Source of the DNA: Eubacteriales bacterium
Lineage (GTDB): Bacteria; Bacillota; Clostridia; Oscillospirales; CAG-382
NCBI GenBank assembly: GCA_045544855.1
Contig: JAZPZV010000042.1
Coordinates: 16,399 to 80,398, forward strand
DNA: 64,000 nt
Direction of reading: 5' to 3'
Within the stretch, counting starts at the first letter, position 1. Each line of letters begins with the position of its first letter. The notes under the pieces are model-generated. The model saw only the letters and a list, made by a program, of their open reading frames with translations, ran no database searches and had not been told where the DNA came from. The translations under genes were made by a program, and so were the position numbers. Positions 3,314 to 60,296 of this stretch are shown in pieces.

Positions 3314-3328
3314 GAAAACGTTTATGTC

Positions 3329-3460: not shown

Positions 3461-3461
3461 C

Positions 3462-19174: not shown

Positions 19175-20056
19175 TTATCCGTGTATAGAAACGCCTTGCG
19201 AAAGCAGGGCGTTTTTTCCTTGCAACAGTGTTTCTGCGGAGGGGATCCATTCTGCCTGTGAACAGTCGTCCATCCCCGCCGCCTTTGCCTTGGCACCGCC
19301 GTAAGGGTGATAGGGCAACAGCTCCACACCTTCACAGTTTTGCAGGCTGTGATACAGCTTGGCAACAGCGGTATAGTGGGCACCATTGGCGTTTACACCG
19401 TTTACCAGAATACAGCGTAAACGGGACTTGCCGCCCAGAGAATCCACCATACGGAGATTTTCCAAAATATGCTTGTTGGAGACCCCCGTATACGCCAAAT
19501 GCCTTGCGTCGTCGGTGTCCTTCACGTCCCAAAGGAACAGATCCACCAAGGGGATGGCTTTTTGTAGCAGGGCGGAGGAAACGTACCCACAGGTCTCCAC
19601 GGCTGTGGAAATGCCGTTTTCCTTGCAAAGCTTCAAAAGCTCCAAGACCTCTTCCCCCTGCAAAAAGGGCTCGCCCCCGGAAAGGGTGACCCCGCCTCCG
19701 TTTTGGTAGAAGGGCGCATCCCGTTGGATCACCTCCAAAAGCTGTGCAGGGGTCATGTCCTTACCGCACAGGGACAGCGCCCCGGTGGGACAAAGAGAGG
19801 TGCAACTCCCGCAGGCAACACAGCTTTCCCGCCGCAGGGTATGCATCTCTTCAAAGCTATGTACCCCTTGGGGGCATTCTTCGCAGGCACGGCAGGAAAT
19901 ACATTTTTTCGTTTCAAACAAAAGCTGTGAAGCGGGACTTTGGGTCTCGGGGTTATGGCACCACGGGCAATGCAAGGGACAGCCCTTGAAGAAGATCACC
20001 GTCCGCACCCCGGGCCCGTCGTGCATACAAAACCTTTGGATCTCCGCTACCTTCAT
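19175..20056 (-). CDS. Glycyl-radical enzyme activating protein (radical SAM, with two auxiliary ferredoxin-type clusters)
   Basis: CPLHCPWCHNPE (CxxxCxxC) plus CISCRACEEC and CVACGSCTSLCP. The start overlaps the GRE stop (ATGA). Confidence 0.9.
   Translation of the reverse strand: MKVAEIQRFCMHDGPGVRTVIFFKGCPLHCPWCHNPETQSPASQLLFETKKCISCRACEECPQGVHSFEEMHTLRRESCVACGSCTSLCPTGALSLCGKDMTPAQLLEVIQRDAPFYQNGGGVTLSGGEPFLQGEEVLELLKLCKENGISTAVETCGYVSSALLQKAIPLVDLFLWDVKDTDDARHLAYTGVSNKHILENLRMVDSLGGKSRLRCILVNGVNANGAHYTAVAKLYHSLQNCEGVELLPYHPYGGAKAKAAGMDDCSQAEWIPSAETLLQGKNALLSQGVSIHG
19191..19220 (+). terminator. Terminator for 16558-19173, embedded in the 3' end of the convergent activase gene
   Basis: AACGCCTTGC-GAAA-GCAGGGCGTT followed by TTTTT. 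Confidence 0.6.
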
Positions 20057-36593: not shown

Positions 36594-36747
36594 GATAGAA
36601 TCCTTTCTGACATTTATAGTTATCCTTATCATATCACTTTCCATGTTTTCTGTCAATCTACGAATAAGCCAAAATACCGCTCTGATTTTTGACAAAAATC
36701 ACAAAGGAAAACGCACCCCAAAATACGGGATGCGTTTTGTGAAAAGC

Positions 36748-38535
36748 TTACGTTCTGTACTGCTTCTGATACTCCGTAATGGCCGCTTCGATATCGGGGA
36801 TCCTGCCATAGATACGGGAAGCCACTGCGGTGGTATTGTCTTTGAACATATCGGGGAGCAACGTCCCTGCCCCGCCCATGCCGTGGGTCACGCCCAGGTC
36901 ATAGGTCATGGAGGAGAAGATGATCTCCAGCATTTCTCTGGAATCCCAGTCTACGGTGTGGGCACTGCGGAGCAGACCCTCCTCGTATTCGGGAGTCACG
37001 ATGTTCTTGGAGTAGCAGGCCAAGACTTCCATCATGTATGCGGAGAAATGTGCGTTCGCCACGTTTCTGGGAATGCAGAAGCCGTAGGCGTACTGCCCCA
37101 TCACGGGAGTGCTGTAGGATTGCTGCTTGGAGGAATGCAAGGGCATGGGAAGGATACCGAACTCCACGTCTTCCCCTGCACGGAGACCGTCCACGGAAGC
37201 CAGGGTATCCACGTAGAACAGAGCGCGGCCGGAGGTGAACACACTGCGCCCCAGATCCCAATTTGCGGTGCCGTCTCCGCTGAGCGTTTCCACCACCAGA
37301 AGTGCGTCGGTGTTCTGCAGGGTCTGGATCACCTTCACGGTAGTGGTCAACCCTGTGGCATCCCCGATGGTCACCTTGGGAACGCCGGAGGTATTGGTGG
37401 TCAGGAGCTGCTTGCCGGAGGCTAAGTAATGGTAAAGGGCGATGTTGTAAGAGCTCACCACGCCCCAAGTGTCGGGGAAGCCCATACCGGGAGTGCCGTC
37501 AATATCTGCGGTAAGCAGTTTACCGGCCTCGTACAGAGCATCCAAGGTCCAGGTCTTATTCCGCACCATGGCGTAGAAATCAATGGAAAGGTCGTCTGCC
37601 AGGGTCTTGTTGAACAGCACTGCGGCGGAAGCCTTCTTGTTGGAGAAGCTGGCATCCCCCACTGCGAAGTACAATTTGCCCTCGAAAGTCAGGGGATCGT
37701 TGGCGGTCTGATCCCACCAGGGTGCCTGCAGGTGGATGATATCGCCGAAGTTTCTCAGATTGTAAAGCAGTTGATCCTGCCCCAGGCCGATGGCGTCCCG
37801 CAGGAAGGGCATGGCCGCATCGTAATCCACGGTGTCTGCCAAAGAGTCGTTGCGCAGGGTCTCCGCCACGTCGTCCACGCGGTAAGCACCGATCTCCACG
37901 CCGTAGTCCGCAAGAATATCCCGGTTGCGGAGCTTGACGAAGTTTTCGATACGGGTGCCGTAGATCCCGGCGGCGATCTCTTCGGAATAGTAGGTCTTTT
38001 GCAGGTTGTCGCCGTACACCAGGACGGTAAACAGATCGTCCGCAAACTCAAAGGGAGGCATCTGCAGCTCGTTCAGGGTGAAGTTGCCCTCGTTGTCCCG
38101 ATACGGATCGGTATCGGGAGATACCTCGGAGGAGGTGTCCTCGGAGCTTTCCTCTTCGGAGGAGGTATCCTCGGAGCTTTCCTCAGACGTGTCCTCGGAG
38201 CTTTCTTCGCTCTCGTCACTTTCGTTGCTTGCTTCGGAGGATTCAGCCTCGGAGCTTTCTTCCTCTGAAGATTCCGCCTCTGAAGATTCCGCCTCGGAGG
38301 ATTCCTCTTCGGAGCTGTCCTCGGGAAGGACGATGCTGCTGACGGTCCCCTTGGAGGATTCTTCCTCGGAGGACTCTGCCCCCAAGGATTCCGTTTCGGA
38401 GGATTCTGCCTCGGAGCTTTCTTCCGCAGAGGATCCCGCTTCGGAAGAGGTCTCCTCCTCTCCGCAAGCGGAAAGGGCAAGACAGGCAAGCAGCAGGCAG
38501 GAAAGCAACAGTATTAAGAGTCGTTTTATTGACAT
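36748..38535 (-). CDS. Large extracellular solute-binding lipoprotein with a ~130-aa S/E-rich acidic linker (paralog)
   Basis: Lipobox LALSACGEEETSSE. A long (ESSE/SEES)n tract, then YDAAMPFLRDAIGLGQDQLLYNL and APWWDQ. Confidence 0.75.
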   Translation of the reverse strand: MSIKRLLILLLSCLLLACLALSACGEEETSSEAGSSAEESSEAESSETESLGAESSEEESSKGTVSSIVLPEDSSEEESSEAESSEAESSEEESSEAESSEASNESDESEESSEDTSEESSEDTSSEEESSEDTSSEVSPDTDPYRDNEGNFTLNELQMPPFEFADDLFTVLVYGDNLQKTYYSEEIAAGIYGTRIENFVKLRNRDILADYGVEIGAYRVDDVAETLRNDSLADTVDYDAAMPFLRDAIGLGQDQLLYNLRNFGDIIHLQAPWWDQTANDPLTFEGKLYFAVGDASFSNKKASAAVLFNKTLADDLSIDFYAMVRNKTWTLDALYEAGKLLTADIDGTPGMGFPDTWGVVSSYNIALYHYLASGKQLLTTNTSGVPKVTIGDATGLTTTVKVIQTLQNTDALLVVETLSGDGTANWDLGRSVFTSGRALFYVDTLASVDGLRAGEDVEFGILPMPLHSSKQQSYSTPVMGQYAYGFCIPRNVANAHFSAYMMEVLACYSKNIVTPEYEEGLLRSAHTVDWDSREMLEIIFSSMTYDLGVTHGMGGAGTLLPDMFKDNTTAVASRIYGRIPDIEAAITEYQKQYRT

Positions 38536-38563
38536 GAAAAATCCCTCTTCTCTGCTTAAAGGT

Positions 38564-39751
38564 TTATGATTCGCTCTGCAATGCAGTGGCGATGGTTTCC
38601 GCATCCTCGCCGCCGATCCAACGAACGGTCAGCTCCTCGGTCTGCGTATTTTCGGCAAAAAAGGCGTTGCGCACCACGTTGTAGGCACTCTTATCGCACT
38701 TGACCAGAACGCCGTCGATCCGTGCGTTGTACTCCCCGTCGGTCTTGCGGCATAAGACGGGAGAGATGATGGGCTTCCCTTCCGCAGAAGCGGTCAGCTC
38801 ATCCATGGCGTAGGCGATGGTTCCGTCCTTCAGGTTCTGGGTATAAGACACCAGGATAAAACGACTGCCGTCCTGGCGTTGCCATACCGCCCATTCCTCG
38901 TCCACACCGGTCTTGAAGGAATAAGCTTCCTCACCGGTAACGGCGTCCATCACGTAGATCACAGGCAAGCCGTCCTCCCCGTGGGTACGGGCAAGCAGCT
39001 CTGCAGTGCCGTCCAGATCCACGTCCTGCAGGGCGAATACCCAGCCGGAGAAGGCGCCTTGCGTCTTATTCTGCAGTAAGGCAGCCAGCGGTGACAAGGG
39101 GATCTCCTCCACCACCTCTACGATACAGGTGGCTTTGTTCCCCTTGGGGGTGGTGGCAGTGATAGTAGCTTTGCCCAAGGCGACGGCGGTCAGACTGCCG
39201 TCTTCCTCCACACGGACCACCAAAGGATCGGAGCTTTCCCAGATCAGAGTACGGTTGGTGGTGCCCACGGGAGTGAACTCGTAGGGAACCTCCACCTTAC
39301 TGCCCGGCAGGGCAAGCATTTCGGTCTTTTTGAACATGAACTCTTTCTCTTCGATGGGAGAGATCACGATCTCCTCCAGCTTGGGCTCGCTTTCGTCCCG
39401 ATAGATCTGATCGTCCACAGAGCTTTCGGGTGCGGAGCTTTCTTCCTCGGAGCTTTCGGGAGGGAGAGATTCGGGATCACTTTCATCCTCGGAGCTTTCT
39501 TCCTCAGAGCTTTCCGTGGGAGTAGACGCGGGATCGCTTTCATCCTCGGAGGGCCAGTCTACACTGATCTCCCCGGGATCGGAGCTTTCCGGTGCGGAGC
39601 TTTCGGGAGCGGAGCTTTCCTCGGAGGAGGTCTGTTGCACAGAGCTTTCCCCGAAAGAAGGTTCCGAGCTTGTATTCCCTTGCTGTTCCGTGCATCCTGC
39701 CGCCAACAGCACCAGAAGCAACGCAACGATTACAAACAAGTATTTCTTCAT
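38564..39751 (-). CDS. Lipoprotein with an acidic linker and a bacterial Ig-like (Big_2-type) domain
   Basis: Lipobox LLAAGCTEQQ (ATG 39751). LIWESSDPLVVRVEEDGSLTAVALGKATITATTPKGNKATCIVEVV is Big_2-like. The C-terminal ~190 aa are unknown. Confidence 0.7.
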   Translation of the reverse strand: MKKYLFVIVALLLVLLAAGCTEQQGNTSSEPSFGESSVQQTSSEESSAPESSAPESSDPGEISVDWPSEDESDPASTPTESSEEESSEDESDPESLPPESSEEESSAPESSVDDQIYRDESEPKLEEIVISPIEEKEFMFKKTEMLALPGSKVEVPYEFTPVGTTNRTLIWESSDPLVVRVEEDGSLTAVALGKATITATTPKGNKATCIVEVVEEIPLSPLAALLQNKTQGAFSGWVFALQDVDLDGTAELLARTHGEDGLPVIYVMDAVTGEEAYSFKTGVDEEWAVWQRQDGSRFILVSYTQNLKDGTIAYAMDELTASAEGKPIISPVLCRKTDGEYNARIDGVLVKCDKSAYNVVRNAFFAENTQTEELTVRWIGGEDAETIATALQSES

Positions 39752-40044
39752 GAATTGCAAACCTTTCCATTCATGGTTTGACGAGTGCCGCAAAAACGGC
39801 TTTTCCCTTTTTGCAGCGGTTTTCTCCCAAAAGAGTTCACCGCCATTCTAATCATCAAATATCATACCACACTTTTCATCCTCCGTCAATGTGGTTTTTT
39901 GTAAATTTTCTGTCATCTCTTCGTGAAAAGATAGCTTTTTTCGACAAAGGAGGGGGATATTTTGCCATTTTCTCCCTGCCGTCTTGACTTTTCTTGCGAT
40001 CCTGCTATAATAAAAACAAGCAAAAAAGAAAGGGGCTTTACGCC

Positions 40045-42764: not shown

Positions 42765-42827
42765 GCGGGCTTACTGCTTCTACATAACAAAAGCCCACCT
42801 TGAGATAGGCAGGCTTTGCTTTGGGAA

Positions 42828-45800
42828 TTATTGGATTTGCTGCATGAGAAGTACGCCGTCGTAAATGGTGAGTTCGCCATCAAAGTCGAAATCGAACACC
42901 ACGTCCGTCTCGGCATTGCCAACAAGAATTGACATCAAAAGCGTCAGGTCGGCTTCTTCCACCGTACCGTTGCCATCCACGTCGAAGTCGGGGGTCTTGT
43001 CACGACTTTCCGTCTCACCGCAGGTCTCGCAGGAGCGTTCCTCCACGCCCGGTGCTACGTCGTACCAGTCGCTCCAGGTGTGGCCTGCAGGCTCTACGTA
43101 ATCGCTTACGTAGCTGTCACCGCATTCACAAGTGTAGGTGGTGTAGCCTTCTTCGGTGCAAGTGGGTTTCGTCACAAATGCATTGTAACTATGACCCGTT
43201 GCAGAGATTGTGTTGGTCTCAAAGTGGTCACAGTTCTTGCAGTCTCTGCGTTCCAAACCGTCTACGGTGCAGGTTGCTTCCGTTACGGTGTACCACTCGT
43301 CAAAAGCATGATCCTTAGCGTTTACGCGGTCTGCAACGTAGCTGTCTCCGCAGCGGCAGGTGTAGGTCGTGTATCCTTGCTCTGTACAAGTGGGTTCGGT
43401 GACGACACCTTCGTACTTATGAACGTGATCCAATCTGGGCAGGGTTTCCGTTTCGGTCTCGCCACAGGTGGTGCAGGTGAAGACCTTTGTGCCCGTGGTC
43501 TCCTCCGTGGGTTCTACGGTCACCTCGCCGCTATCCCAGTTGTGCCCGACGGCGGGGGTGTAGTCTCCGATGTAGAAGTCTCCGCAGTGGCAGGTGTGAG
43601 TGGAATAGCCCTTTTCCGTGCAGGTGGGCGGGGTTACGGTTGCGTGGTAATCGTGCCCGGTTGCAGAAACCTTGTCGGAAACATAGCTATCGCCACAGTG
43701 GCAGGTGTATGTGGTGTAGCCGCCTTCTGTGCAAGTGGGCTTGGTGACAATCGACTCATAAACATGAGGAATCTGTGAAATCGACTGGGTATAGTAATAA
43801 TCACAACGGCTACAATCAATGCGTTCTTGTCCCTGCTCGGTACAAGTGGGCTCTTTTTCTACATACCCAGCACCCATATCGTGTCCAAGAGCACCTATAT
43901 AGTATGCAATATATTGATCGCCGCAATGACAAATATTGGTTACATAGCCCTCCTCCGTACATGTGGGCGGGGTTTCTACGGACGAATATGCATGGCCGGT
44001 GCTCCAAACGTAATCTGCATAGTAAGAATCACCACAATGGCATTCATATACGTTGTATCCGTTTTCGGTACAAGTGGGCGCAACCGTATCCACTATTTCA
44101 TAGGTATGACCGGTGGGAGGAATTTCAATATAGGTGCTGTAATTGCAACGACTGCATTCCTCGTATTCCTGCCAGCCAATATCCAAGCAAGTGGGAGCTT
44201 TTGCACCATGTTTTGTAAGATCGTGACCCAGTTTTGGAATCTCGACATAGGTAGAATATTCACAGTAACGACATTTCTGATACTCCTCCCATCCGTTTGC
44301 CGTGCAAGTTGCTTCTCTCTTGGGAACGGTGACCAATTCGTGTTGATGCCAAACGGCGATCAATTCCAAATCTCCGGTTACCGTCATGTTCTCAACATAG
44401 TTCTGCCATTCCACAAAAACGTAGTCCAGCAAAACAGGGTCGGCAGGTAGCTCGACAGTAGCACCGTAAGGCAGTGTCTGCACCAAATAAATTTCATCGG
44501 TGACGGAGTCGCGGAACGTGACGGTATAGTTCTTTACTGTCTTTTGGATTACCGCAACAGCATCAAGGGGTACCGCTGTTGTTGCCGGAATCGGATCCGG
44601 CAAACCGTCTCCATCAAGATCCCAACCGATCAATTCGGCTGTGTACTGCGCATCCGAAAGCGGTTCGTATACCGGTCTGCGTACGATCGCAGAGTTGAGT
44701 CGAGGCTCGCAGTAAAGGACGTTTCCGTTCTCGTCGTAGAAGTATACCCACGACCATTGATCGGCATAATATACCCTATTTCCATTGTTCCATCCGGGGA
44801 AATTGTCGTCCCAACGCAAGTCCTCCTCAAGGAATTCCACAAAGATCGTAATGCCTGAAACGCCATTAAAAATGTAAAGATTTTCTCTCAATGCCATCGG
44901 ATCAACGCGATCTGTAATGACAACGTTTTTCAATACGCTCGTATTTGAGTTAAGCACTCCGCGAATGAATTTGGTAAGAATCAAGGTCTCTACATTAGAT
45001 GTACCATCCAAGGTATTGATGGCGTTTTTTAACAAGTGACGTCCGTAGAATACACTGTCTGCAACCAAACGAATCGATTTTATGTTGGGAAGATATTTTG
45101 TGTGTTGATCTACGTCTAACAGGCAGCCATCGATCAGCAAGCAGCCATTTTTGTAGTACAAGGGGTTGTTGTATAGTTCGTCACAGCCGGAGAAGGCATC
45201 ATCACCAATCGAGGTCACGCTGTCCGGAATGACCACGCTGGTCAAACTGTTACAACCTTCGAAGGCAGAAAAACCAATCGAGGTCACGCCCTTCGAAATG
45301 ACCACGCTGGTCAAGCTGCTGCAGTTGCAGAAGGCAACATTACCAATCTCAGTCACGCTGCCCGGAATTACTACGTCAGTCAAGCCGCTGCAGTTGAAGA
45401 AGGCAGAAGAACCAATCGAGGTCACACTGTCAGGAATGACAATGCTTGTCAAGTTGCTGCAACCGCGGAAGGCATTACTATCAATTGAAGTGAAGCCCTC
45501 TGGAATGACTACGTGCGTTGCACCACGGAAATTTCTTATCGTATAAACAAATCCATTGATTGTCAGCGGCAAGGTAACCGTGCTTTCTTCTCCCAAATAT
45601 GCTCTCAATACATAGATATCGTTGCCTTCGTAATCTTTCTCGATGGCAAATAGGAATTTTTCCTCTGTTACAAGGTATTCATTTCCATCGTCACGACACA
45701 ATACATTTCCGGTAGCATCTACAATTATCAATGCGTTATATGCAATACCACCATATTCTTCGCCAAAACCAATCGGAAGACTGCTGTTGTTGTATACAAG

Positions 45801-48800
45801 CAGAATGTTACAACGGGAGAAGGCATAAGAACCAATCTCCGTTACGCCCTCCGGGATGACTACGCTAGTCAAACTGCTGCAGTTCTGGAAGGCACCAAAA
45901 CCAATCGAGGTCACGCTGTCACGGATGACTACGCTGGTCAAACTGCTACCGCCGTCGAAGGCATAAGAACCAATCTCAGTCACGCCTTCCGGAATCACTA
46001 CGCTGGTCAAACTGCTGCAGTTGTAGAAGGCAGAAGAACCAATCTCAGTCACGCTGTCCGGGATAACAACGCTGGTCAAACTGCTGCAGTTGTAGAAGGC
46101 AGAAGAACCAATCTCAGTCACGCTGTCCGGAATGACCACGCTGGTCAAACTGCTGCAGTTATAGAAGGCCCAGTCCCCAATCGAGGTCACGCTGTCCGGG
46201 ATAACAACGCCGGTCAAACTGCTGCATCCATAGAAGGCATCATCACCAATCGAGGTCACGCTGTCAGGGATGACAATGCTGGTCAAACTGCTGCAGTTAT
46301 AGAAGGCCCCGTCCCCAATCGAGGTCACGCCGTTTGGAATCGAAACTGTAGTAATATTGGGAGAAACATATAAAATACACGTCAGATCCGAATCGTACAC
46401 AACCCCATCAATGACATGATACTTGTCCAATTGTGCAAAGGTTATTGTTGTGCAGCTAGGGAACACATTTCTCTCCATTCGGGGAATTCCCCCCTTGAAA
46501 ATCACTTCGCGTAAGTTTTCACAACCCGCGAAGGCCCCCCCTCCGATGTAACTCACACTGTCGGGGATGACAACGCTAGTCAAACTGCTGCAGTTCTGGA
46601 AGCCGCCATAAATCTCAGTCACACCGTTTGGGATGACCACGCTGGTCAAGCTGCTACAACCTTCGAAGGCAGAATAACCAATCGAAGTAACACTGTCCGG
46701 GATGACTACACCGGTCAAACTGCTGCAACCGCGGAAGGCATCTTGCCCAATCGAGGTCACACTATCCGGGATTACAACACTCGTCAAACTGCTGCAACCA
46801 CAGAAGGCAGAATAACCAATCGAGATCACGCCCTCCGGGATGACTACACCGGTCAAACTGCTGCAACCGTCAAAGGCCCAATCTCCAATTGAGGTCACAC
46901 TGTCCGGGATTACTATGCCGGTCAAACTGCTGCAACCTTTGAAGGCAGAATAACCAATCGAGGTCACGCCCTCCGGGATGACAATGCTTGTCAAACTGCT
47001 GCAACCGCCAAAGGCCCAATCTCCAATTGAGGTCACACTGTCCGGGATTACTATGCCGGTCAAACTGCTACAGCCGTAGAAGGCAGAAGAACCAATGGAG
47101 GTCACACTGTCCGGGATGACAATGCTGGTCAAACTGCTACAGCCGTAGAAGGCAGAATAACCAATCGAGGTCACACCGTCAGGAATGATAACGCTGGTCA
47201 AACTGCTACAGCTGGAGAAAGCAGAATTTCCAATGAGAGTCACACTGTCAGGGATGACAATGCTGGCCAAACTGCTGCATCCGGAGAAGGCATAGGATCT
47301 AATCGAAGTCACACCTTGCGGAATAGAAACAGTAGTAACATTGGGAGCAACGTATAAGATATTTGACAAGTCTAAGCTGTACACGATTCCATCAATGACA
47401 CGATACTTGTCCAACTGCGTAAAGGATATAGTTGTATGGATTGGAAATACATCCCCTCCCATTTGAGGAATATCTCCGGTGATAATCAACTCGCGCAATT
47501 GTTCACATCCGTCAAAGGCAGAATCACCAATTGAGGTCACGCCCTCCGGGATGACTACGCTAGTCAAACTGCTGCAGTTCTGGAAGGCACCAAAACCAAT
47601 CGAGGTCACGCTGTCAGGGATGACTACGTCGGTCAAACTGCTGCAACCGCGGAAGGCCCAATCACCAATCGAGGTCACGCTGTTCGGGATGACTACGCTA
47701 GTCAAAGCACTGCAACCTTTGAAGGCAGAATAACCAATCGAGGTCACGCTGTCCGGGATAACTACGCTGGTCAAACTGCTGCAACCGTCAAAGGCCCAAT
47801 CTCCAATTGAGGTCACGCTGTTCGGGATAACTACGCCGGTCAAACTGCTGCAACCAGAGAAGGCATCATCACCAATCGAGGTCACGCTGTCCGGAATGAC
47901 CACGCTGGTCAAACTGCTGCAACCAGAGAAGGCATCATCACCAATCGAGGTCACGCCTTCTGGAATCACCATATGCGTTGCGCCACGGAAATTTATTATC
48001 GTATAAACGAACCCATTGATTGTCAGCGGTAAGGTAACCGTGCTTTCGTCACCAAAATACCCAACTAACATATAAAAATCTTTGCCCTCATAGTCTTTCG
48101 AAACGGCAAAAAGAAATTGATCATCCGTCAAAAAGTATTCGTTTCCATCGGCACGATAAAAAGCATTTCCGGCAGCGTCTACAATCATCAATGCCTTATC
48201 TGCAATGTTGCCATACCCACCGCTGAAATCAATCGGAAGACTACTGTTATTATATATACTCAGAATGTTACAGCCGGAAAATGCACCAGAACCAATCGAA
48301 GTCACGCTGTCCGGGATGACAATGCTGGTCAAACTGCTACATCCGGCGAAGGCACCATTCCCAATCGAGGTCACGCCCTCTGGGATAACAACGCTGGTCA
48401 AACTTCTGCAGTAGGAGAAGGCATATTCCCCAATCGAGGTCACGCCCTCTGGGATAACAACGCTGGTCAAACTTCTGCAGTTGGAGAAGGCACCAAAATC
48501 AATCGAGGTCACGCTGTCAGGGATGACTACGTCGGTCAAACTGCTGCAACCAGAGAAGGCACCATCACCAATCGAGGTCACGCTGCCCGGAATTACTACG
48601 TCAGTCAAACTGCTGCAACCGCGGAAGGCATCTCGCCCAATCGAGGTCACACTATCCGGGATTACTACGCTGGTCAAACTGCTACAGCCGTCGAAGGCAT
48701 AAGAACCAATCTCAGTCACGCCTTCCGGAATCACTACGCTGGTCAAGCTGCTACAACCGGAGAAGGCATTATTACCAATCGAGGTCACGCTGTCAGGGAT

Positions 48801-51800
48801 GACTACGTCGGTCAAACTGCTGCAACCAGAGAAGGCACCATCACCAATCGAGGTCACGCTGTCGGGGAGTACAATGCTTGTCAAACTGCTGCAGTTATAG
48901 AATGCGTAATGTCCAATGGAGGTCACGCCCTCTTGGATGACTACGCTCGTCAAACTGCTGCAGTAGGAGAAGGCATATTCCCCAATCGAGGTCACGCCCT
49001 CTTGGATAACAACGCTCGTCAAACTGCTGCAGTAGGAGAAGGCATATTCCCCAATCGAGGTCACGCCCTCTGGGATAACAACGCTGGTCAAACTGCTGCA
49101 GTTCTGGAAGGCATGTTCCCCAATCGAGGTCACGCTGTCAGGGATGACTACGTCGGTCAAACTGCTGCAACCAGAGAAGGCACCATCACCAATCGAGGTC
49201 ACGCTGTTCGGGATGACCGCGCTCGTCAAACTGCTACAGCCGGAGAAGACATACCCACCAATTTCAGTCACGCCCTCCGGGATGACAATGCCGGTCAAGC
49301 TGCTGCAGTTATAGAAGGCCCAGTCCCCAATCGAGGTCACGCCGTTTGGAATTAAAATGCTGGTCAAACTGCTACAGCCGTAGAAGGCAGAATAACCAAT
49401 GGAGGTCACACTGTCCGGGATGACAATGCTGGTCAAACTGCTACAGCCGTAGAAGGCAGAATAACCAATCGAGGTAACGCCCTCCGGGATAACAACGTTT
49501 GTCAAACTGCTACAGCCGGAGAAGACAGACCAACCAATTTCAGTCACGCTGCCGGAGATGACAACGCCGGTCAAGCTGCTGCAGCCCGAGAAGGCGCCAT
49601 CAATCGAGGTAACCCCATCTGCAAAGACGACTGAGCCGGTAATTCCGACACCAAAATGTCCAGATCTGGCCTCCGGATAGACGAAATATCCCGATTGCCA
49701 ATACGTAGTAATGGTATTGGTAAGTTCATATTTTGCGGTTGTGCCTTTAAACGCATCATTCCACAATGCACTCACACTATGAGGAACATTGATCGTCTCC
49801 AGCGTAGAGCAGTTATAGAAACCGTAAAGCCCTACAAAAGTGATGCCATCGGTAATGGTTACCGTTTTCAGAGAAGTGGGCACATAAGTCTGATTGGCTA
49901 CATACGAACCCGCGCCGAAGATATAGCCGAACCAGGAGAGTTCCTCATCCTCGTAGGAGGCGCCAATGAAGGGAAGGGTAACTTCCGTGAGCCGGTTGCA
50001 TTCTTCAAAGGCGCCGATGCCGATGATCAGATCCCACTGATTGGTATCTGGGATGGTCAGCTTGGTGATCTTGGTACCAAGGAAAGCATACGGGCCAATA
50101 TCGATCAGCGTTTCGGGGGTAGTAAATTCGCCGCCAATGGAGGTATATGCAAAGGCGTAGTCGTAGATACCCTTGACTGCGTTGTTTTCGCTTAGGGGGA
50201 GCTTGTTAATCTTTGTGCATCCATAGAAGGCAAAATCGGAGATCTCCACGATAGCATCGGGGATAACGAGATTCTCCAAATTGATATCGCCGCAGAAGGC
50301 GCCTTCGTAGATGCCCTTCAGCTTGTTGCCCTCTGCAAAGGTGACGGTTTGGAGCTTTTCGCAGTAGGCGAATGCGTAGTAGTCAATGGAAACAACGCTT
50401 GCGGGGACGTGGATGGCCGTGAGGTTTTTCGCGCCAAAGAAAGCGCGGTAGCCAAAGGTCAGAATATTAGCATTGGGATCAAAGAGAACCTCGTCCAGTG
50501 CCGTGTTTTCGAAGGCACCGAATCCGATCTCTTCCACAGAAATCGGCACGGTCAAAGAACCCGTTCTGCCCGCCGGTACAGTGACCAGCTTTCTGCCGGA
50601 TTTGGTAAGAAGGAGCCCATCAACAGATTTGTAATTGGGGTTGTTTTCATCCACGGTAATGGAAGAAAGCTTTTCCAAGCCCACGAAGCAGTATTCACCG
50701 ATGTAGGTGACATTTGCGGGGATATGAAGGCTTTCCAGTCCTGTGTTGTAGAACACGTTGCTCAGCAGACGGATGCCACCGCTGTTGCCGAAGGAAACGG
50801 TCTTCAAGGTGAGAATATCCCGGAATGCATTGTGATTCACCGTTTTCATGCCGTCGGGCAGAGTGACTGTAGTCAACTTAGTGCCCATAAAGGCGTTCCG
50901 GGGGATCTCTTCCAATGCGATACCCTTCTCGAAGGTCACGGAGGAGATACTGCTCTTTTGGAATACGCCTGTGCCGAGGGTGGTGACAGAGGCAGGAATT
51001 GCGACGGAAGTCAGCTTGTCCGTTCTCTCGAAAGCGTACTGCTCAATGGTGGCAAGGGAAGCATTCTCTGCAAAGGTGAGGCTTTCGATAGCGGAGTAGG
51101 CAAAGGCTTCTCGACCAATGAAGGTAACGGATGCGGGGATGGCAATGCTCTTCAGAGGTGCGTATTGGAAGGCCTCCGCCTGGATGGAGGTCAGTGTTTC
51201 GGGCAAGACGATGGTCTCCACCGTACTGTCCTCAAAAGCACTGCCGCCGATGACGGAAATGGGCGCACCAAGGTTGACGGTAGTCAGATCCACCGTCTTA
51301 TCGGTTCCCAAGTATTCAATGATGGCGATGTTGCCGGAGGTGAGGGTGGCGTACTTGTAGTCGCCTACGGTCTCTACGTTGGTCACACCGGTGTAATAGC
51401 CGCGGATGCCGTGATCCCAGTTCTCGTCCAGATAGGCGGGCATGGTTTCGGAAGCTAAGTAAAGATCAAGGTCATTGGTGCCCAAGAAAGCATAGCTTCC
51501 GATATGTTCAAGAGATTCGGGGAGAGAAAGTTCGGACAAAGACTTGCAACCGTAGAAGGCGTAGCGGCCTACGTTCTTAACGGTAGAGGGCAAATTCAGA
51601 GTCCTTAAGCGATAGCAGAAACGGAATGCGAAGTTATCGATATTTTCCAGTTTGGCATCGCCGAAATCAACGGAAGTAAGATTATCCATACCTTCCAGAC
51701 CGTGCGCCTGGATAGAAGTCAATTTACTTCCGGGCATAAAGGTGATGGACTGCAGGTTGGTACAACCGTCGAACATATAGGCGGAGATGCTCTCCAGCTT

Positions 51801-54800
51801 GCTGTTTTCGGCAAAGGTAACGGATGATAACCAAGGACAGCCTACAAACACGCCCTGTGCCATAGTGGAAACGTTGGCAGGCACGGTAAAGGACCGCAAG
51901 CCGGTATATGCGAATGCGCCATAGCTCAGACGAGGGATTTTCGCGTTTTCGCCAAAGGTGATGGATCCAAGATTCCAATCTTCTGCAAAGGCATATCTTC
52001 CGATCTGCAGAACGTTATCGGGAATATGTACATACGGTAAACTACTGCATCGATAGAAAGCATACTCGGCAATTTGCACCAAGGCTTCCGGAAATTGAAT
52101 GGAGGATAGATTACGGTTTTGGCAAAAAGCGCCTTCCATAATATTCGTCAGCGTAGAAGGCAACGTATAGGTAGACGCACCACAATCAATAAAGGCGTAC
52201 TCATTGATGATGGAAAGCCCCTCCGGAATGTTCACGTGGCGAAGATATACCGTTCCGGCAAAGGAATAGGATTGAATGGTGCGAACAGTAGATTCCAAAG
52301 AATAGGTGTCGATATTCTTGCCTGCCGGGAAGGCGCAAATGGTAACGTTATCCAACGTGTAGACAATACCGTCAAGGTCGTGGTATACGGTATTGCCCGC
52401 CTCAATGATAATGTCCGTTAAAGAAGAGCAATATGCAAATACGCCATCGCCGAGATATGTAACGCTCGCAGGAATGCTCACAGTTTCCAATCCCGTTGCT
52501 GCAAACGCCATATCCCCTATTGAATTCAATTTTTGCGGCAACGTGATTGCAGGGAGATAACAACCAAAGAAGGCAGAATCTCCGATTGTGAATAGCTCAC
52601 TGTTTTCGGGGAAGGTTACCCGGCTAAGCGGATTGTTTTCAAAAGCGCCGTCGTCGATCAAAACAACCGAAGCCGGAATACTGATTTCGCGAATAGAACA
52701 ACTGGAAAATGCCGTTTCTCCAATAGACTGCAACCTACTGTCGGAAGCAAAAGTCACAGAAACGAGTCCGCTCTTCTCAAAAGCACCACTGCCAATAGAC
52801 ACAACCTGTGCCGGGATTTCAATTTTATGCAACGAGGAACAACCGGAGAAAGCATCATCCGCTATTTCAGTCAAGCCGCTGCCGATATGCACAGAAGAAA
52901 GCTCGACATTGCCGACGAAAGATCCCCCGCCCATTTCTACCACCGAGTCGGGCAAGAACAAAGTTTCCAGAGTTGAGCCCTCAAAAGCGGATCCACCAAT
53001 GGTCTGCACTTGGTTCAGATCTACTTCGTCGATCCGCGCGTACGCAAAGGCACAGTCGGCAATGGAAATCGTCTGCTCGGGCAAGGCGTAAGTTCTTCCC
53101 CTTGCGGCGGGATACGCAACCAGTGTGCTTTGGGTAGCATTGTAAAGCACACCATCGGGGGCAGTAAAATAGGCATTCCCTGCTTGCACCTTAATTTCAT
53201 ATAGGGAAATGTCTCCCAAAAACGCAGTGGCGTTAATGCTTTCCAAAGCGGCAGGCAGTTCAATGGTCCTCAGTTTTCCGCACCCGCTGAAAGCATAGTT
53301 CCCAACAGTTTTCAACTTGCTGACGCCTGTAAACGCAATGGTAGAAAGACGGATATTATCTACAAACGCATATTCCCCGATAGAAGTAACGTTCTCCGGA
53401 ATATACATACTCACAAGGTTGGAACACCCTTGGAAAGCATACCACTTGATGGTGGTCAGACCGGAAGGCAAGCCCACCTCACGCAGTCTGGTCTGTCCCG
53501 CAAACGCAAACTCACCGATGGAGGAAACGATTTTCCCGTTGATCTTTTCAGGGATCGTAATAAAGCGGCGTCTGCCGGTATAAGAACGGATCTCGATAGT
53601 ACCGTCTTCCAACTCTACGTAAGTAAAAGGAACTCCATCATCTTCGTTGACCCACTTGGCATAAAGGGTAATGTCGTCGTAGAACTTATCTTCGTAGTAG
53701 ACGTATTCCTGGGTAAAGGTATCGTCATAGTACCAGCCATCGAATACTGCATAAAGCCTTTCCGGCTCGGGAAGCTCTTGCAGAGTATGGCCCTTGATAA
53801 ATAACGCCTCGTCGTTCTCCAGCTCGTCGGTGAGCATATCGAAGGTAATGATGCGTCTCTCTTCCAGCAAAAAAGCATTCATATCCAACGCACCGAAGCC
53901 GTAGGTCCAATCTCGACCCAAGTCTCCCAAATCGAAAGAGGAAGCGTACAGAACCTCGGTAACATCCTCAACCATGATATAGGGATTGTTTTGCATAAAC
54001 AAGGAAACAGCACCGGCAACCACGGGAGAAGACAGCGAAGTGCCGTTCATGGTACCGTAATCGCCGCCCATTTGTGCGGTGTAGATAGTACCGGGGGCAA
54101 CCACGTCAACATTCTCACCGTAGTTGGAATAATCAGCCAGTTCCCAGCTATCAGCAGCCAATGCACCTACACCGATAACGTTAGGATCCGCCGCAGGATA
54201 CATTAAAGAAGAGGTTCCATCATTACCCGCTGCCGCCACGCACACGATATCGCTGTCAACAGCAAGCTGCGTTGCTGCCGCAAAGGGATTGGATGCTTCA
54301 TACGTGCCGAAGGACATATTGATGACTTGCACGTCTCGCTCAATGGCGTAGTAAAGACCGAAGACCAAGTCGGAGCTACGCTTGAAAGTACCGTTTTCGT
54401 CACACTCCGCCTTGATAACGATGATGTTCACGTTGGGCGCAATACCGACGATACCATCTCCGTTCATAGACGCGGCAAGAACACCGGTCACGGCGGTACC
54501 GTGGCCTTGCTCATCTTCGATCAAAGACCAGTCATAATTACCGTTTTCGTCCGTCCAGTCCTTAACGATCTTATCCTCCGTGGCGTTGTAAGAATACTCA
54601 CTGATACGCCCGGCAAACTCGGGATGATCCGTATCAATACCCGTGTCGATGACCGCTACCGTAACACCCCAACCGGTGTAGGAACTCCAAACGTCCTTCA
54701 TGTTGAGATAATCCAGGTAAGTTTGGAGTTCATAGTCTGTATCGGAAACGGAGTACGTAGGACGAGTAGGCAGTCTCTCCCCTGTCGTCTCCTCCTCTGT

Positions 54801-55181
54801 CTCTAAATCGCTGATACGCACCTGATAGTCCGCAGCCATCTTTTCGATGTGCTCCAGATTGGCATCGTTAGCATATACGTCACGGATGGTAGTTCCCTCA
54901 GGCAAGGTCAGCTTGGCAAACCGCCCATCCTTGGTGATGCGCAGCTCTGCCCCCAAAAGGGTAGCAAGCTCCTCAGCATTGGCCTTTGAGGTCTGGTTCA
55001 GCACAATACTCTGCTCGTCGTACGTGCCAAGATCGCGCTCCAATTCCTCCAAAGCTTCATTCCGCAACTCCTCAAGCCGAGAAGTCTGCACCACTTGATG
55101 AATCAACACAGCCGTAATAGCCGTGGTAATCAGTACAAGGGCCAGTATGATCGCAAGAACGATCCTTCCTTTGCGTGTCAT
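42828..55181 (-). CDS. Giant (4117 aa) surface protein: signal anchor + subtilisin-like S8 protease + Listeria/Bacteroides-type repeat + >100 BspA-type LRRs + ~13 Cys/His modules + C-terminal dockerin
   Basis: One uninterrupted 12,354-nt frame. RBS GGAGG. Domain evidence is given in the sub-features. Confidence 0.85.
42831..42995 (-). other. Type-I dockerin-like module (two Ca-binding repeats)
   Basis: [22 protein letters not shown] and [21 protein letters not shown]. Confidence 0.7.
43020..44345 (-). other. About 13 tandem ~35-40-aa Cys/His modules (GH-x-PTCTE-x-GY-x3-C-x-CGD-x-Y)
   Basis: Examples: [32 protein letters not shown] and [27 protein letters not shown]. Confidence 0.7.
45170..49640 (-). 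repeat. Near-identical 69-nt (23-aa) coding repeats of the LRR array, interrupted by two pairs of paralogous non-LRR inserts
   Basis: Unit [23 protein letters not shown]. The 69-nt period is visible, for example GTCAAACTGCTGC at 45868 and 45937. Inserts: X at 45508-45810 and 47968-48270, Y at 46338-46535 and 47318-47510. Confidence 0.85.
49640..53564 (-). other. Divergent BspA-type LRR region
   Basis: Degenerate units such as [24 protein letters not shown] and [22 protein letters not shown]. Confidence 0.75.
53877..54689 (-). other. Peptidase S8 catalytic domain
   Basis: Asp in VAVIDTGID (codon 54645-54647), His in [10 protein letters not shown] (54501-54503), Ser in [11 protein letters not shown] (54036-54038). 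Confidence 0.85.
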
Positions 55182-55232
55182 AGAACACCTCCGAAATAAA
55201 AAAATCCCTCAGGACGTTATCGTAGCATAATG

Positions 55233-55261
55233 ATTTTATCATGTTGTTAACATTCTGTCAA
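55233..55261 (-). promoter_or_regulatory. Promoter candidate for the giant gene
   Basis: The minus strand reads TTGACA-17 nt-TAAAAT, about 50 nt upstream of the start. A second TTGACA lies at 55301-55306. Confidence 0.6.
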
Positions 55262-55495: not shown

Positions 55496-56083
55496 TTAGT
55501 CGTCCCAGTCCAGCTCCTGCTTTAAGATCTTACCGTCGGAAACGCGGATCTCGTATTCATACTCGTATCCGCCGTGGTCAAAGTCGATCTCGTAGAGGGT
55601 GACGCCACGGTCGATATCCTTTTCCACCCGCAGGCGAGTGACCTGCTCTGCGGTGAGCCCTGCGTGAGCGAGGGCGATGGCAACCGCTTCCTCCTCCGTC
55701 AGCTCCCCGGTCTCCTCCTTGGGAGGCTCTGCGGGAGGCTCGGGGACGGCGGGGGTCTCCGGCTGCTTGGCGGGCTTTTCCTGCTCGCTCTTCTGCTTTA
55801 AGATCTCTCCCGTGGTGGCATCGATCTCAAAGTCGTACTCCGTGGTTTCGTGTCGGAGCTCCACCTCCCAGACCTGCACGCCACGCTCGTAGTCAAGCTC
55901 CGAACGCTCAAAGCGCACTTGGTCACGGGTGAGTCCCAGGGATTCCAGAGCGATGGTCTCGGCTTGCTCTGCTGTCAGTGCTGCGGAAGAGACTTCCCAG
56001 CTTTCCAAGGCGAGTGCCGCAAGGGCAACGCCGCCAAGGCACAGGATCACAGTCAGCAAAGCGGCAAAAAGTTTTTTCATCAT
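55496..56083 (-). CDS. Secreted/anchored protein with two PepSY domains
   Basis: Signal/TM segment MMKKLFAALLTVILCLGGVALAALA. Two units (..VQVWEVELRHETTEYDFEIDATTGEILK and ..VTLYEIDFDHGGYEYEYEIRVSDGKILK) are separated by a P/E linker. Confidence 0.8.
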   Translation of the reverse strand: MMKKLFAALLTVILCLGGVALAALALESWEVSSAALTAEQAETIALESLGLTRDQVRFERSELDYERGVQVWEVELRHETTEYDFEIDATTGEILKQKSEQEKPAKQPETPAVPEPPAEPPKEETGELTEEEAVAIALAHAGLTAEQVTRLRVEKDIDRGVTLYEIDFDHGGYEYEYEIRVSDGKILKQELDWDD

Positions 56084-57496: not shown

Positions 57497-57525
57497 TTTA
57501 CAAACGGAAAACTATGTGTTATACT
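57497..57525 (+). promoter_or_regulatory. Promoter candidate for 57564-60296
   Basis: TTTACA-17 nt-TATACT with an extended -10 TG. Confidence 0.55.
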
Positions 57526-57563
57526 GCAATTGCTTAGAAATACAAAGAAAGCGGGAAAGCAGT

Positions 57564-60296
57564 ATGAAAGCAAGAAAATTTCTACTTGTATTGTTGACTG
57601 TGGTGATGTTATCTGCCGGGCTGATCATTTCAGCTAGCGCCATGCTCGGCGACGTCGACAACAACGGTAAAATCGACGCCAGAGACTATGCGATGGTCAA
57701 GCGTTACGTTCTCCATACCTTTTCGTTGACCGATGAGCAGCTCGCCGCCGCCGATATAGACGGTAACGGAAAGGTTCAGGCCATAGACTACGCAAAGATC
57801 AAGCGCCACATTTTGGGTACGTATAAAATCGTACAGCCTGAGGAACCCCACGTTCATTCTTTCAGTGAATGGGCTACCGTGAAAGAAGCAACTTGTACCG
57901 AGAATGGTTTGCAAGAACGTTCTTGTGTTTGCGATTTAAAAGAGACTCGTTCCTTTGGATATCATGGCAATTACGGTTATACTAGCCTTGCTGCAATATC
58001 CAATGGCAGCAAGATGCAGGCGCTTTATGATGAAATCGATAGAGTTGCGGTTGAATTTCACAGCAATACCAACCTGAATGCTGAAAACAACATAGTTGGA
58101 AAATTCAATTATAGTGCTTTCGGATTGACAGGCGAGGAGGCTATTGCCGTATGGAAAATATACAAAAATGATCATCCTCTGTATTACTGGATATCAGCAA
58201 CCGCAAATTATGATAGTACCGACTTAGTGTTGTTAACAGATGACATTTATGCTCAAGGTTCAGATCGCTTAGTATATAACGAAATTGTATACAATGGCAT
58301 TAAAGAATATGCCGAAGAAGTATCAAAAAAGGAAGATTCACCTTATCTTATAGCTTTAGCTTTCCATGATAAAATAATCCTTTCTATGGAATACGCCTAC
58401 GAATCTGACGGTTCGACTCCAGAAAACGATGCTTGGGCTCACAACATTCTTGGCGTATTTGAAAAGAAAACCGGCGTATGCGAAGCCTATGCAAAAACCT
58501 TCCAGTTGTTACTTAATTATTGTGGTGTTGATAACATATATGTTACGGGATATGCAACCGAGCCACATGCTTGGAATCTCGCAAAAATGGATGACGGCAG
58601 CTGGTATTGGTTTGATCTCACATGGGACGATAAATCCGACACCAACAGCAATACCCTTGATTGGACATGGGGTATTTGGTATAATTATTTCTGTGTAAAC
58701 GATACCAAAGATGTAGCGTCATATTACTGTTGGTCTTTGCCATATACTAATTTTTTGGACAATCATACACCCGAAACTCCTTTGGGTACAGGAATTGATT
58801 TCCTCTATTCACTTCCATCAAGAAGTAAAAACGAAACCATAACTAAACAGCACTATGCTTTGTCACAAATGGTCTTGCCTGATGAACAGGGGTTTACCGT
58901 TGACGGCATACTTTACAATGTCGCCGGATATAATACAGCGTTAGTAGCGAGCATAAATAGCTCGGGAAAAGTTGAAATCCCTGAAACAGTTACATATAAT
59001 GGCAGGACATATGAAGTTATCGCTGTTTATAATCTAGGCAACGGTATTACTTCTATCACTATTCCTAAAACAGTAAAATTTATTCCCGGTCCCTTGAACG
59101 GTAAACATTTAACAGATTTTATCGTGGATAAGGACAATCCGTATTTCACTGCAAAAGACGGCGTTTTATTTACCAAAAATCTATACACATTAATTGCCTA
59201 TCCTTTTGACAATCCGAGAACGGAGTACACTATACCTGATGAAGTGCACGATATTGCATATCCAGCGTTTGGGCTTTCACAATCTTCAGACGGCGGTGAC
59301 ACCTGTCATTATCTCTCTACCTTGATTTTGGGGGCCAATGTAAGTGGCGTTGGAAGAGATAACGCTGGTTGGGGTTACCGTGATAAAGAAATCGTCCTGG
59401 AAGATGACGAAGTATTTTTTGATCAGGCCGGATACATCACTGGATACTGGCCATATATATATAAGTCCTTAAAAGGCGAGCAAAAAACAATTGTTTCAGG
59501 AAATAATCCATATTATAACATAGAGGGGGGAGTATTATATTCAGATAATTGGATACTATGTGTTTTAGATCAATCCATAACAAAACTGCATATTACAGAA
59601 AACATTTCGGAGATTCCCTCTAACGTTTTTGAAGAGGCTCCCTTCCTAGAAGCAATAACAGTTGATCCCAATAATAAATGGTTTTTCGTATATGACAATG
59701 TCTTATACCGAGGATCAATTGGTAACCCAGAAGAACTTGTAGGAGTTCCCAGAGCGATAAAGGGAAGTATTGCAATCATCAATGGGCTATCGCAAATCCC
59801 TTCATGGTCTTTTAGCAACTGTACCAATCTGGTTAGCGTTACTATTCCAGCCAGCGTTAATAGTATTGGTTATTCTGCATTCACAAGTTGCACTTCTCTC
59901 CAAAGCGTAGTTATTCCTAACTCTGTGACTTTTATTGATAGTAATGCATTCCATAGTTGTTCTTCACTTGAGAGTATAACTTTGCCGGATGGTATTACAA
60001 GCATCCCGGTAGCGGCATTCTTAGGTTGTACATCGCTAAAAAGTATAACACTCCCTTCCTCTTTGATAAGTATAGGTGATGCTGCTTTTTGGGAGTGTAC
60101 TTCGCTAAGTAACATAGCAATTCCGGTTTCAGTTACACATATTGGGGAGCACGCAATTTTCAATTGCGTCCTATTAACAAGAATAAATTTCGAAGGAACA
60201 ATTGAACAGTGGAACGCAATTAACAAAGTCAGTTCTTGGGACGATGCAACCGGTAGTTACACCATCTACTGCACCGATGGCAACATCGCAAAATAA
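57564..60296 (+). CDS. Secreted protein: N-terminal dockerin + Cys module + transglutaminase-like cysteine-protease core + BspA-type LRRs
   Basis: Signal peptide MKARKFLLVLLTVVMLSAGLIISASA. Dockerin GDVDNNGKIDARDYAMVKRYVL..ADIDGNGKVQAIDYAKIKRHILG. ATCTENGLQERSCVCD. TGase core GVCEAYAKTF..EPHAWNL..WFDLTWDD. C-terminal [33 protein letters not shown] repeats. Confidence 0.8.
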   Translation: MKARKFLLVLLTVVMLSAGLIISASAMLGDVDNNGKIDARDYAMVKRYVLHTFSLTDEQLAAADIDGNGKVQAIDYAKIKRHILGTYKIVQPEEPHVHSFSEWATVKEATCTENGLQERSCVCDLKETRSFGYHGNYGYTSLAAISNGSKMQALYDEIDRVAVEFHSNTNLNAENNIVGKFNYSAFGLTGEEAIAVWKIYKNDHPLYYWISATANYDSTDLVLLTDDIYAQGSDRLVYNEIVYNGIKEYAEEVSKKEDSPYLIALAFHDKIILSMEYAYESDGSTPENDAWAHNILGVFEKKTGVCEAYAKTFQLLLNYCGVDNIYVTGYATEPHAWNLAKMDDGSWYWFDLTWDDKSDTNSNTLDWTWGIWYNYFCVNDTKDVASYYCWSLPYTNFLDNHTPETPLGTGIDFLYSLPSRSKNETITKQHYALSQMVLPDEQGFTVDGILYNVAGYNTALVASINSSGKVEIPETVTYNGRTYEVIAVYNLGNGITSITIPKTVKFIPGPLNGKHLTDFIVDKDNPYFTAKDGVLFTKNLYTLIAYPFDNPRTEYTIPDEVHDIAYPAFGLSQSSDGGDTCHYLSTLILGANVSGVGRDNAGWGYRDKEIVLEDDEVFFDQAGYITGYWPYIYKSLKGEQKTIVSGNNPYYNIEGGVLYSDNWILCVLDQSITKLHITENISEIPSNVFEEAPFLEAITVDPNNKWFFVYDNVLYRGSIGNPEELVGVPRAIKGSIAIINGLSQIPSWSFSNCTNLVSVTIPASVNSIGYSAFTSCTSLQSVVIPNSVTFIDSNAFHSCSSLESITLPDGITSIPVAAFLGCTSLKSITLPSSLISIGDAAFWECTSLSNIAIPVSVTHIGEHAIFNCVLLTRINFEGTIEQWNAINKVSSWDDATGSYTIYCTDGNIAK

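Follow-up and report, generated by a model that had tools for sequence, protein, structure and literature searches.

We analyzed a 64,000-nt stretch of DNA (hereafter, the window) from the Eubacteriales bacterium (GTDB CAG-382) assembly GCA_045544855.1, contig JAZPZV010000042.1, positions 16,399–80,398 of the forward strand. A giant gene at positions 42828..55181 of the window, on the minus strand, encodes a real secreted protein of an uncultured gut Oscillospiraceae, in which a subtilase, leucine-rich repeats (LRRs), Cys/His modules and a divergent dockerin are joined in one chain of 4117 residues. On balance we lean toward a model in which this protein is a pre-pro-subtilase with a very large BspA-type LRR platform, a Cys3-His stalk and a dockerin, displayed on the cell surface via a cohesin partner as part of a non-cellulosomal cohesin-dockerin display network. 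An earlier, sequence-only reading had taken the protein for a protease/adhesin rather than a carbohydrate-active enzyme (CAZyme), and this is supported. That reading had also placed the protein on a cellulosome-like scaffold, for which we find no support: the window contains neither a cohesin nor a dockerin-bearing CAZyme. Its dockerin proteins combine a protease with LRRs, or a transglutaminase-like core with LRRs.

The open reading frame (ORF) runs uninterrupted for 12.35 kb, from an ATG start through 4117 codons to a stop. A Shine-Dalgarno sequence, GGAGG (55188..55192), lies 6 nt before the ATG, a promoter-like element, TTGACA-17 nt-TAAAAT (55233..55261), lies upstream of it, and a terminator-like hairpin (42790..42817) directly follows the stop, all on the minus strand; the promoter and terminator assignments are consensus matches only. 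Another terminator-like hairpin stands behind the upstream PepSY gene and is followed by the promoter-like site of the giant gene, which by this layout looks like a self-contained transcription unit. The ORF is thus confirmed at the length first proposed, although the exact number of repeat copies may still prove different. Exact-sequence look-ups with the giant protein and with a neighboring protein returned no match. A collinear ortholog of 3704 residues is found on a 207-kb contig of the metagenome-assembled genome (MAG) "Oscillospiraceae bacterium SIG690" (L003:10001-21115), to which the N-terminal 516 residues are 97% identical. Chance is not an issue for the domain assignments described below, all of which lie far above threshold, the dockerin excepted.

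The protein starts with MTRKGR, followed by a hydrophobic stretch of 21 residues (residues 7–27; 55101..55163, minus strand) that lacks an Ala-X-Ala site, a layout common to the orthologs. The N-terminal signal anchor of the sequence-only reading is thus present in the form of this segment, which appears to be either a signal anchor or an uncleaved signal. In an AlphaFold2 model of residues 1–450 (mean predicted local distance difference test score, pLDDT, 91.7), residues 3–49 form one long helix, extending the hydrophobic segment to residue 49. Residues 54–119 (54825..55022, minus strand) follow as a compact beta-alpha-beta-beta-alpha-beta fold (pLDDT >90), and after them comes a disordered acidic linker, at about residues 123–150, in which residues 123–129 have pLDDT <50. 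Foldseek aligned the model over 404–453 columns with unprocessed pro-subtilisin E, pro-Tk-subtilisin and fervidolysin, versus about 279 columns with mature subtilisins, some 125–175 fewer, and the profile alignment with fervidolysin (1r6v) begins at position 52. The Pfam I9 propeptide model has no match in the giant protein, and a single-sequence search of the PDB with the putative prodomain gave chance matches only, such that fold prediction was needed here. These models make it likely that a subtilisin-type prodomain separates the anchor from the protease proper. In characterized subtilases, cell-envelope proteinases included, the prodomain is removed autocatalytically after folding. Given the position of the predicted prodomain, between anchor and protease, maturation would probably detach the mature protein from its N-terminal anchor.

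The catalytic domain itself (residues 172–430; 53892..54668, minus strand) matches Peptidase_S8 (PF00082) with 170.6 bits against a cut-off of 21.8 in a Pfam scan of the whole protein. D179 (54645-54647), H227 (54501-54503), the oxyanion residue N320 (54222-54224) and S382 (54036-54038), all encoded on the minus strand, are invariant across an alignment with 34 homologs. The triad described earlier as intact is thus confirmed, with the oxyanion asparagine in addition. A profile of this alignment finds subtilisins in the PDB at E values of 1e-69 to 1e-74, and the model superimposes on subtilisin with a template-modeling (TM) score of 0.86 and a root-mean-square deviation (rmsd) of 2.2 Å (Foldseek). 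Because the catalytic residues are invariant and the profile matches subtilisins, we expect the protease to be active. Membership in more narrowly defined families was rejected on NCBIfam scores. The type VII mycosin model (TIGR03921) gives 166.6 bits against a cut-off of 278.75, which reflects generic S8 likeness only; the LPXTG serine peptidase model NF040553 (SGO_0316 family) gives 32.8 against 1400, and the C-terminus carries no LPXTG; and dentilisin and CspBA were likewise discarded. Behind the protease lies the Listeria-Bacteroides repeat noted earlier (Flg_new, residues 460–509; 53655..53804, minus strand), which scores 45.6 bits and is also matched by TIGR02543.

The LRR region spans residues ~520–3333 (2813 residues, 8.4 kb) and is matched by LRR_5 (PF13306) with 2094.8 bits over 23 stretches; matches to LRR_8 and FNIP fall on the same repeats. 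About 50 irregular BspA-type units (residues ~520–1850; 49632..53624, minus strand) precede about 50 regular units of 23 residues (residues 1857–3333; 45183..49613, minus strand), whose DNA period is 69 nt. The earlier count of more than 100 BspA-type LRRs over about 8.4 kb is therefore sustained as "about 100" units. The regular units form five blocks separated by two types of non-repeat spacer, in the order S1, S2, S2, S1. Among the 44 complete units, with partial and irregular ones besides, the scaffold reads V-T-S-I-G-x-x-A-F-x-x-C-S-S-L-T-x-V-V-I-P-x-x, and the units strongly tend to use the same codon at each conserved position (Leu15 is TTG in all 44). Variation in these units is concentrated at positions 6, 7 and 10 (x-x-A-F-x), with 2.5–2.9 bits of entropy. 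By a crude Nei-Gojobori estimate, dN/dS is 0.06 for the scaffold and 1.6 for these three positions; the values are descriptive only, since the positions were chosen post hoc and the units compared are paralogs. Between the LRRs and the Cys/His array lies an LRR C-terminal region with a weak second Flg_new-like repeat (residues 3334–3611; 44349..45182, minus strand), which at 23.6 bits falls below cut-off.

Residues 3612–4065 (42987..44348, minus strand) form an array of Cys/His units of about 38 residues each, with the pattern H-x10-C-x3-G-x5-C-x1-2-C. The array reported in the sequence-only reading is real; its count of about 13 units is not, as a profile built from the array finds 12. Identity among these units is ~55–75%. 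The array had no real match in Pfam, NCBIfam or the sequences of the PDB, and, apart from a spurious fragment of CueR, library searches with the array region yielded nothing but calmodulin-level matches in the dockerin loops. Used as a query, the same region brings up over 7400 proteins at E ≤ 1e-5, almost all of which are unnamed or "hypothetical" and from Clostridia MAGs. We built an alignment and a profile from triples of same-type units, in which the His, a Pro-Thr-Cys, the Gly and two further Cys are invariant in each unit of about 38 residues. Against 1.84 billion cluster representatives, the three-unit profile had 63,861 matches at E ≤ 1e-3, with 39,033 at the stricter limit of E ≤ 1e-10; they include proteins as long as 7583 residues. 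Pfam, run on array-bearing relatives, yields only fragment matches of about 14 residues to zinc-ribbon knuckle models, and a literature search for a described Cys-rich, zinc or dockerin-linked repeat brought up nothing relevant. With 63,861 matches and no Pfam model, the Cys/His unit is a very common module that Pfam leaves unmodeled.

In 5454 units from 266 proteins, Cys1 is conserved in 94%, Cys2 in 100%, Cys3 in at least 80% (a value limited by the alignment) and Gly in 99%, and the His is conserved at the unit start. In a minority unit type, Glu, Asp or Tyr replaces Cys1; Glu or Asp at this position would suit a metal ligand better than a disulfide partner. From this conservation we infer that the units are probably metal-stabilized. 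AlphaFold2 models three consecutive units with a pLDDT of 95.2, each as a three-stranded antiparallel sheet with no helices. A Foldseek search of this model against the PDB returned nothing significant (best E 0.26, TM 0.24), a single unit probably being too small, and the rod too elongated, for this kind of search. Both in the two array- or unit-bearing proteins of the window and in relatives, the Cys/His units adjoin an anchoring module (dockerin, cohesin or CWB2), and for this reason we read them as a stalk.

The C-terminal module (residues 4066–4117; 42831..42986, minus strand) we accept as a divergent two-loop dockerin, at threshold level only. Dockerin_1 (PF00404) is not reported at E ≤ 0.01 when Pfam is run on the whole giant protein. 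With the last 59 residues alone, the model scores 23.8 bits, just over its gathering cut-off of 22.9 (E 5e-5), so the two-repeat dockerin proposed earlier passes marginally. Its two loops, of 12 residues each, show the Ca-loop pattern D-x-D/N-x-D/N-G...D, and each is followed by a hydrophobic helix. Equivalent tails of relatives were also scored. Two Faecousia orthologs, L006 (56.6 bits) and L011 (53.5 bits), carry a canonical dockerin at the same C-terminal position; a further tail, from L007, scores 26.0 bits; and P0092, a transglutaminase-like protein, has almost the same tail as the giant protein, with 34.4 bits. Fragments closely related to this tail bear a precomputed PF00404 label.

The window was searched for a cohesin with Pfam on 30 of its larger ORFs (at least 195 residues), with two cohesin sequences against six-frame ORFs of at least 50 residues, and with a small home-made profile against those of at least 60 residues. 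None of these searches found a cohesin gene in the window, in agreement with the sequence-only reading. Cohesins do occur in proteins that share the Cys/His array. P0018 contains a cohesin, an array and a dockerin; P0352 contains LRR_5 repeats, an array, a cohesin and a dockerin; and in P0028 an array is joined to a cohesin, followed by a gene for a 920-residue protein with Big_3 and Dockerin_1 (L021 2215..7489). P0243 combines Transglut_core, LRR_5, SASA, a Cys/His array and a dockerin, and so shares with the giant protein the order head, LRR_5, array, dockerin. P0248 (2227 residues) has a cohesin, LRR_5 repeats, 29 Cys/His units and three CWB2 wall-binding domains. Its gene lies 12 nt downstream of, and on the same strand as, a gene for a 2309-residue protein with S8, Ig-like and dockerin domains (L022 75..13699; ENA ERZ27317341 k141_402011). 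These two have the look of cognate partners, the wall-anchored cohesin protein serving to display a dockerin-tailed subtilase. The pair is the strongest support at hand for the mechanism proposed here, though it comes from another organism.

In that mechanism, the N-terminal hydrophobic segment would target the protein to the Sec pathway and hold it transiently in the membrane. The prodomain would assist folding, and its autocatalytic removal would then free a mature protein of about 3950 residues from the anchor. The C-terminal dockerin would bind, in a Ca2+-dependent manner, a cohesin carried by a wall-anchored protein whose gene lies outside the window. Held out far from the wall by the stalk and the LRR solenoids, the protease head may then bind and cleave protein targets of the host, the diet or other microbes. 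What the data show directly are the domain content, the conserved catalytic residues, the predicted prodomain fold, a dockerin at threshold level, the architectures of the orthologs and the cognate-looking gene pair of a relative; prodomain cleavage, cohesin binding, metal binding, the stalk role and the targets are inferred.

Several observations weigh against this mechanism. The dockerin score is marginal, and that of the SIG690 ortholog, at 22.7 bits, falls just under the cut-off. A homolog search with the tail gave only six close relatives, all short fragments, which do not establish it as a tag in wide use. Cohesins were detected neither in the 64-kb window nor across ~310 kb of related loci, in searches of limited sensitivity that did not take in the organism's full genome. 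The modeled prodomain is oriented unlike that of crystal pro-subtilisins (rmsd 23–24 Å over the long alignments). Finally, not all S8-LRR orthologs are dockerin-tailed: L013 has a transmembrane segment at its C-terminus, and the tails of L001 and L002 are Big_2-like or basic.

Some of these points would fit equally with a C-terminal module that is a mere Ca-binding EF-hand pair, acting as a structural cap without a cohesin partner. The protein would then be shed or N-terminally anchored, and would serve as a soluble or membrane-bound protease/adhesin. The borderline Dockerin_1 score is in line with this idea, as generic EF-hand models match too; so are the failure to find a cohesin in the window or the related loci searched, the rarity of the tail subtype and the use of other C-termini in the S8-LRR family. 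We nonetheless consider it rather unlikely. Both loops keep the calcium-binding pattern with a hydrophobic helix after each, as in dockerins; canonical dockerins occupy the same position in the Faecousia orthologs; the same tail sits on a different head in P0092, as expected of a targeting module; and cohesins occur in array-bearing relatives, one of them adjoining an S8-dockerin gene. A different arrangement had been suggested in the sequence-only reading, whereby the protein bridges the membrane and a scaffoldin or another cell. Here the N-terminal anchor would stay uncleaved and the prodomain be kept, leaving a free C-terminal dockerin to capture scaffoldins, secreted proteins or cells. The hydrophobic segment, conserved in the orthologs, indeed has no obvious signal-peptidase site, its modeled helix runs on to residue 49, and the transmembrane C-terminus of L013 indicates that membrane tethering is used in the S8-LRR family. 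Against this stand, above all, the prodomain-like fold and the disordered acidic linker between anchor and catalytic domain, subtilase propeptides being cleaved as a matter of established knowledge. In relatives, moreover, the Cys/His array adjoins dockerin, cohesin or CWB2, which argues that the C-terminus is the cell-proximal end. On these grounds we set the bridge aside as improbable, and continue to prefer release from the membrane followed by cohesin-mediated display.

Comparison with orthologs raises the question of whether the central part of the protein is a natural allele. Relative to the SIG690 ortholog, residues 520–1806 are 94% identical, residues 1850–3611 only 39–46%, and the last ~120 residues 88–93%, such that the central 6.5 kb forms a divergent cassette. 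The number of Cys/His units is 12 in the window protein versus 2 in the SIG690 ortholog, and the best match of the regular LRR units is with those of a different MAG, L005 (70–73%). This mosaic could result from recombination that replaced a cassette, or else from a chimeric join. Since the Cys/His units are not near-identical, the difference from SIG690 looks like cassette exchange rather than slippage. Were residues ~1850–3990 chimeric or mis-joined, the length of 4117 residues would not be that of one natural allele, nor would the counts of 50 regular LRR units and 12 Cys/His units. The sharp breaks in identity, the resemblance of the regular units to those of L005, and the presence of exact repeats of 80–99 nt would all be expected in that case. 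Yet the frame is open throughout, the SIG690 ortholog, assembled independently, has its blocks and spacers in the same order (S1, S2, S2, S1), and the first break falls at the boundary between LRR domains, not within repeats. The 69-nt repeats are 61–84% identical at the DNA level (unit mean 77%) and no exact repeat reaches 100 nt, so that a gross assembly collapse is not indicated. Other orthologs are equally long, and mosaic alleles are common among surface proteins. We therefore regard a mis-assembled center as quite improbable. The recurrence of the architecture in other MAGs speaks against a gross artefact of assembly, such as the chimera of several LRR genes considered in the sequence-only reading.

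The other orthologs or paralogs, with 3300–3850+ residues, come from Faecousia, "Eubacteriales" and Clostridia MAGs from animal guts, and their C-termini include dockerins and one transmembrane segment. In two Logan assemblies, S8-LRR genes are followed by LRR/Big_2 giants without a dockerin. At one locus (L001 4313..14802), the S8-LRR gene is split into ORFs of 758 and 2737 residues by an apparent frameshift in an A-rich run, possibly an assembly error or a pseudogene.

Taken beyond this one protein, the data allow a broader and more tentative proposal, about which we have real reservations. The Cys/His unit may be an undescribed, widespread, metal-stabilized extracellular stalk domain of uncultured gut Clostridia, which, in arrays of up to dozens of units, determines how far enzymes and adhesins extend in a non-cellulosomal display network built on cohesin-dockerin pairs and CWB2. 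The giant S8-LRR proteins would then be variable "business ends" of this network, evolving by cassette exchange and by diversification at three LRR positions.

A second dockerin protein is encoded in the window two genes from the giant gene, on its upstream side (57516..60296, likely start 57564, plus strand). It has a signal peptide, a canonical N-terminal dockerin (63.8 bits), one Cys/His unit, a transglutaminase-like core and LRR_5 repeats. Its gene lies in a low-GC stretch (38.7%) and has no counterpart at the syntenic site in SIG690, which points to a probable strain-specific insertion. We take it for a separate gene whose product probably belongs to the same display network, and its nearness to the giant gene counts in favor of that model. 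The gene immediately upstream of the giant gene encodes a secreted protein with two PepSY domains (55496..56083, minus strand), which is 94% identical in SIG690. The idea that this protein is a conserved inhibitor partner was dropped, since its conservation extends to the closest MAG but not to more distant orthologous loci.

Elsewhere in the window, three consecutive lipoproteins (35043..39793, minus strand) have long Ser/Glu-rich linkers after the lipobox; those of 550 and 618 residues have no Pfam match, and one has Big_2. Two large secreted proteins (209..3313 and 16486..19173, both plus strand) combine F5/8 type C (discoidin) domains with DUF4855, and in a third discoidin protein (10653..13475, minus strand) the partner is a calcineurin-like phosphoesterase domain. 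A glycyl-radical enzyme (PFL-like plus Gly_radical; 19175..22167, minus strand) is encoded with a radical-SAM activase, adjoining a GFO/IDH/MocA oxidoreductase. SpoIVB is also encoded in the window, which fits a spore-forming member of the Clostridia.

If the display model is true, uncultured Oscillospiraceae and other gut Clostridia employ cohesin-dockerin pairs for arming their surface with giant protease/LRR proteins, rather than for building fiber-degrading cellulosomes. This would extend the known non-cellulosomal uses of cohesin and dockerin, and would suggest that the function is proteolysis and protein binding where the microbe meets its host or other microbes. The mosaic center and the concentrated LRR variability suggest strain-level variation of the binding surface, which may be relevant to colonization specificity. 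Delineating the very large Cys/His family is the most useful side result of this work; once in domain databases, it would allow better annotation of surface proteins now called "hypothetical", which number in the tens of thousands.

The layout of the giant protein can be compared with those of several known systems. The cell-envelope proteinases lactocepin PrtP and C5a peptidase ScpA have a pre-pro-S8 head, a long binding or spacer region and C-terminal surface attachment, and their prodomain is removed. Like these, the giant protein has a predicted pre-pro-S8 head, a spacer and a probable C-terminal attachment module. Unlike them, it has no PA insert, Fn-like A/B domain or LPXTG, its attachment would be through a dockerin and not by sortase, its spacer consists of LRR_5 and Cys/His units, and it scores far below the cut-offs of the LPXTG serine peptidase models. 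With BspA-type surface proteins, such as BspA of Tannerella forsythia, it shares LRR_5 repeats and their presumed role in protein or cell binding; however, it is far larger, fused to a protease and anchored differently. The protein also recalls Periscope proteins and fibrillar adhesins (PMC8201768, PMC9210967), in which a repetitive stalk near the anchor projects the head and repeat number differs between strains; the two alleles compared here have 12 and 2 Cys/His units, within a central region that differs as a whole. Unlike the repeats of Periscope proteins, the Cys/His units are not near-identical at the DNA level, and the stalk fold is a Cys3-His three-stranded one, not Ig, SHIRT, Rib or G5-E. 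Giant proteins of gut Clostridia with List-Bact repeats, LRRs and dockerin repeats have been read as adhesins, and it was suggested in the same preprint that N-terminal S8 domains may self-process giant proteins (West-Roberts et al., 10.1101/2023.11.21.568195). The protein described here belongs to the same class of repeat-rich, predicted adhesive giants; that survey, however, deals with far larger genes (Omnitrophota, at least 30,000 residues), without the giant S8-LRR family or the Cys/His module.

The concept of dockerins on LRR proteins and peptidases is not new, as it has already been catalogued for the cellulosome of Ruminococcus flavefaciens FD-1, whose dockerins are attached to LRR (28), peptidase (16) and transglutaminase-like (10) modules (Rincon et al. 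2010, PMC2930009). Like the bacterium studied here, R. flavefaciens belongs to the gut Clostridia, and in both the dockerin is found on LRR, peptidase and transglutaminase-like proteins that are not CAZymes, the window encoding both kinds. The present system differs in belonging to an uncultured Oscillospiraceae lineage known from MAGs, with no scaffoldin or dockerin-bearing CAZyme in the window, in joining S8 and ~100 LRRs in one chain of 4117 residues, and in placing a Cys/His array before the dockerin. The L022 pair differs in other ways: it comes from a different organism, its S8 domain is only 35% identical, its protease has a lipoprotein-type signal, and its LRR and Cys/His units are on the cohesin protein. 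Even so, the pair is made of the same parts, an S8 protease with a C-terminal dockerin on the one hand and cohesin, LRR_5, Cys/His and CWB2 modules on the other, split over two genes.

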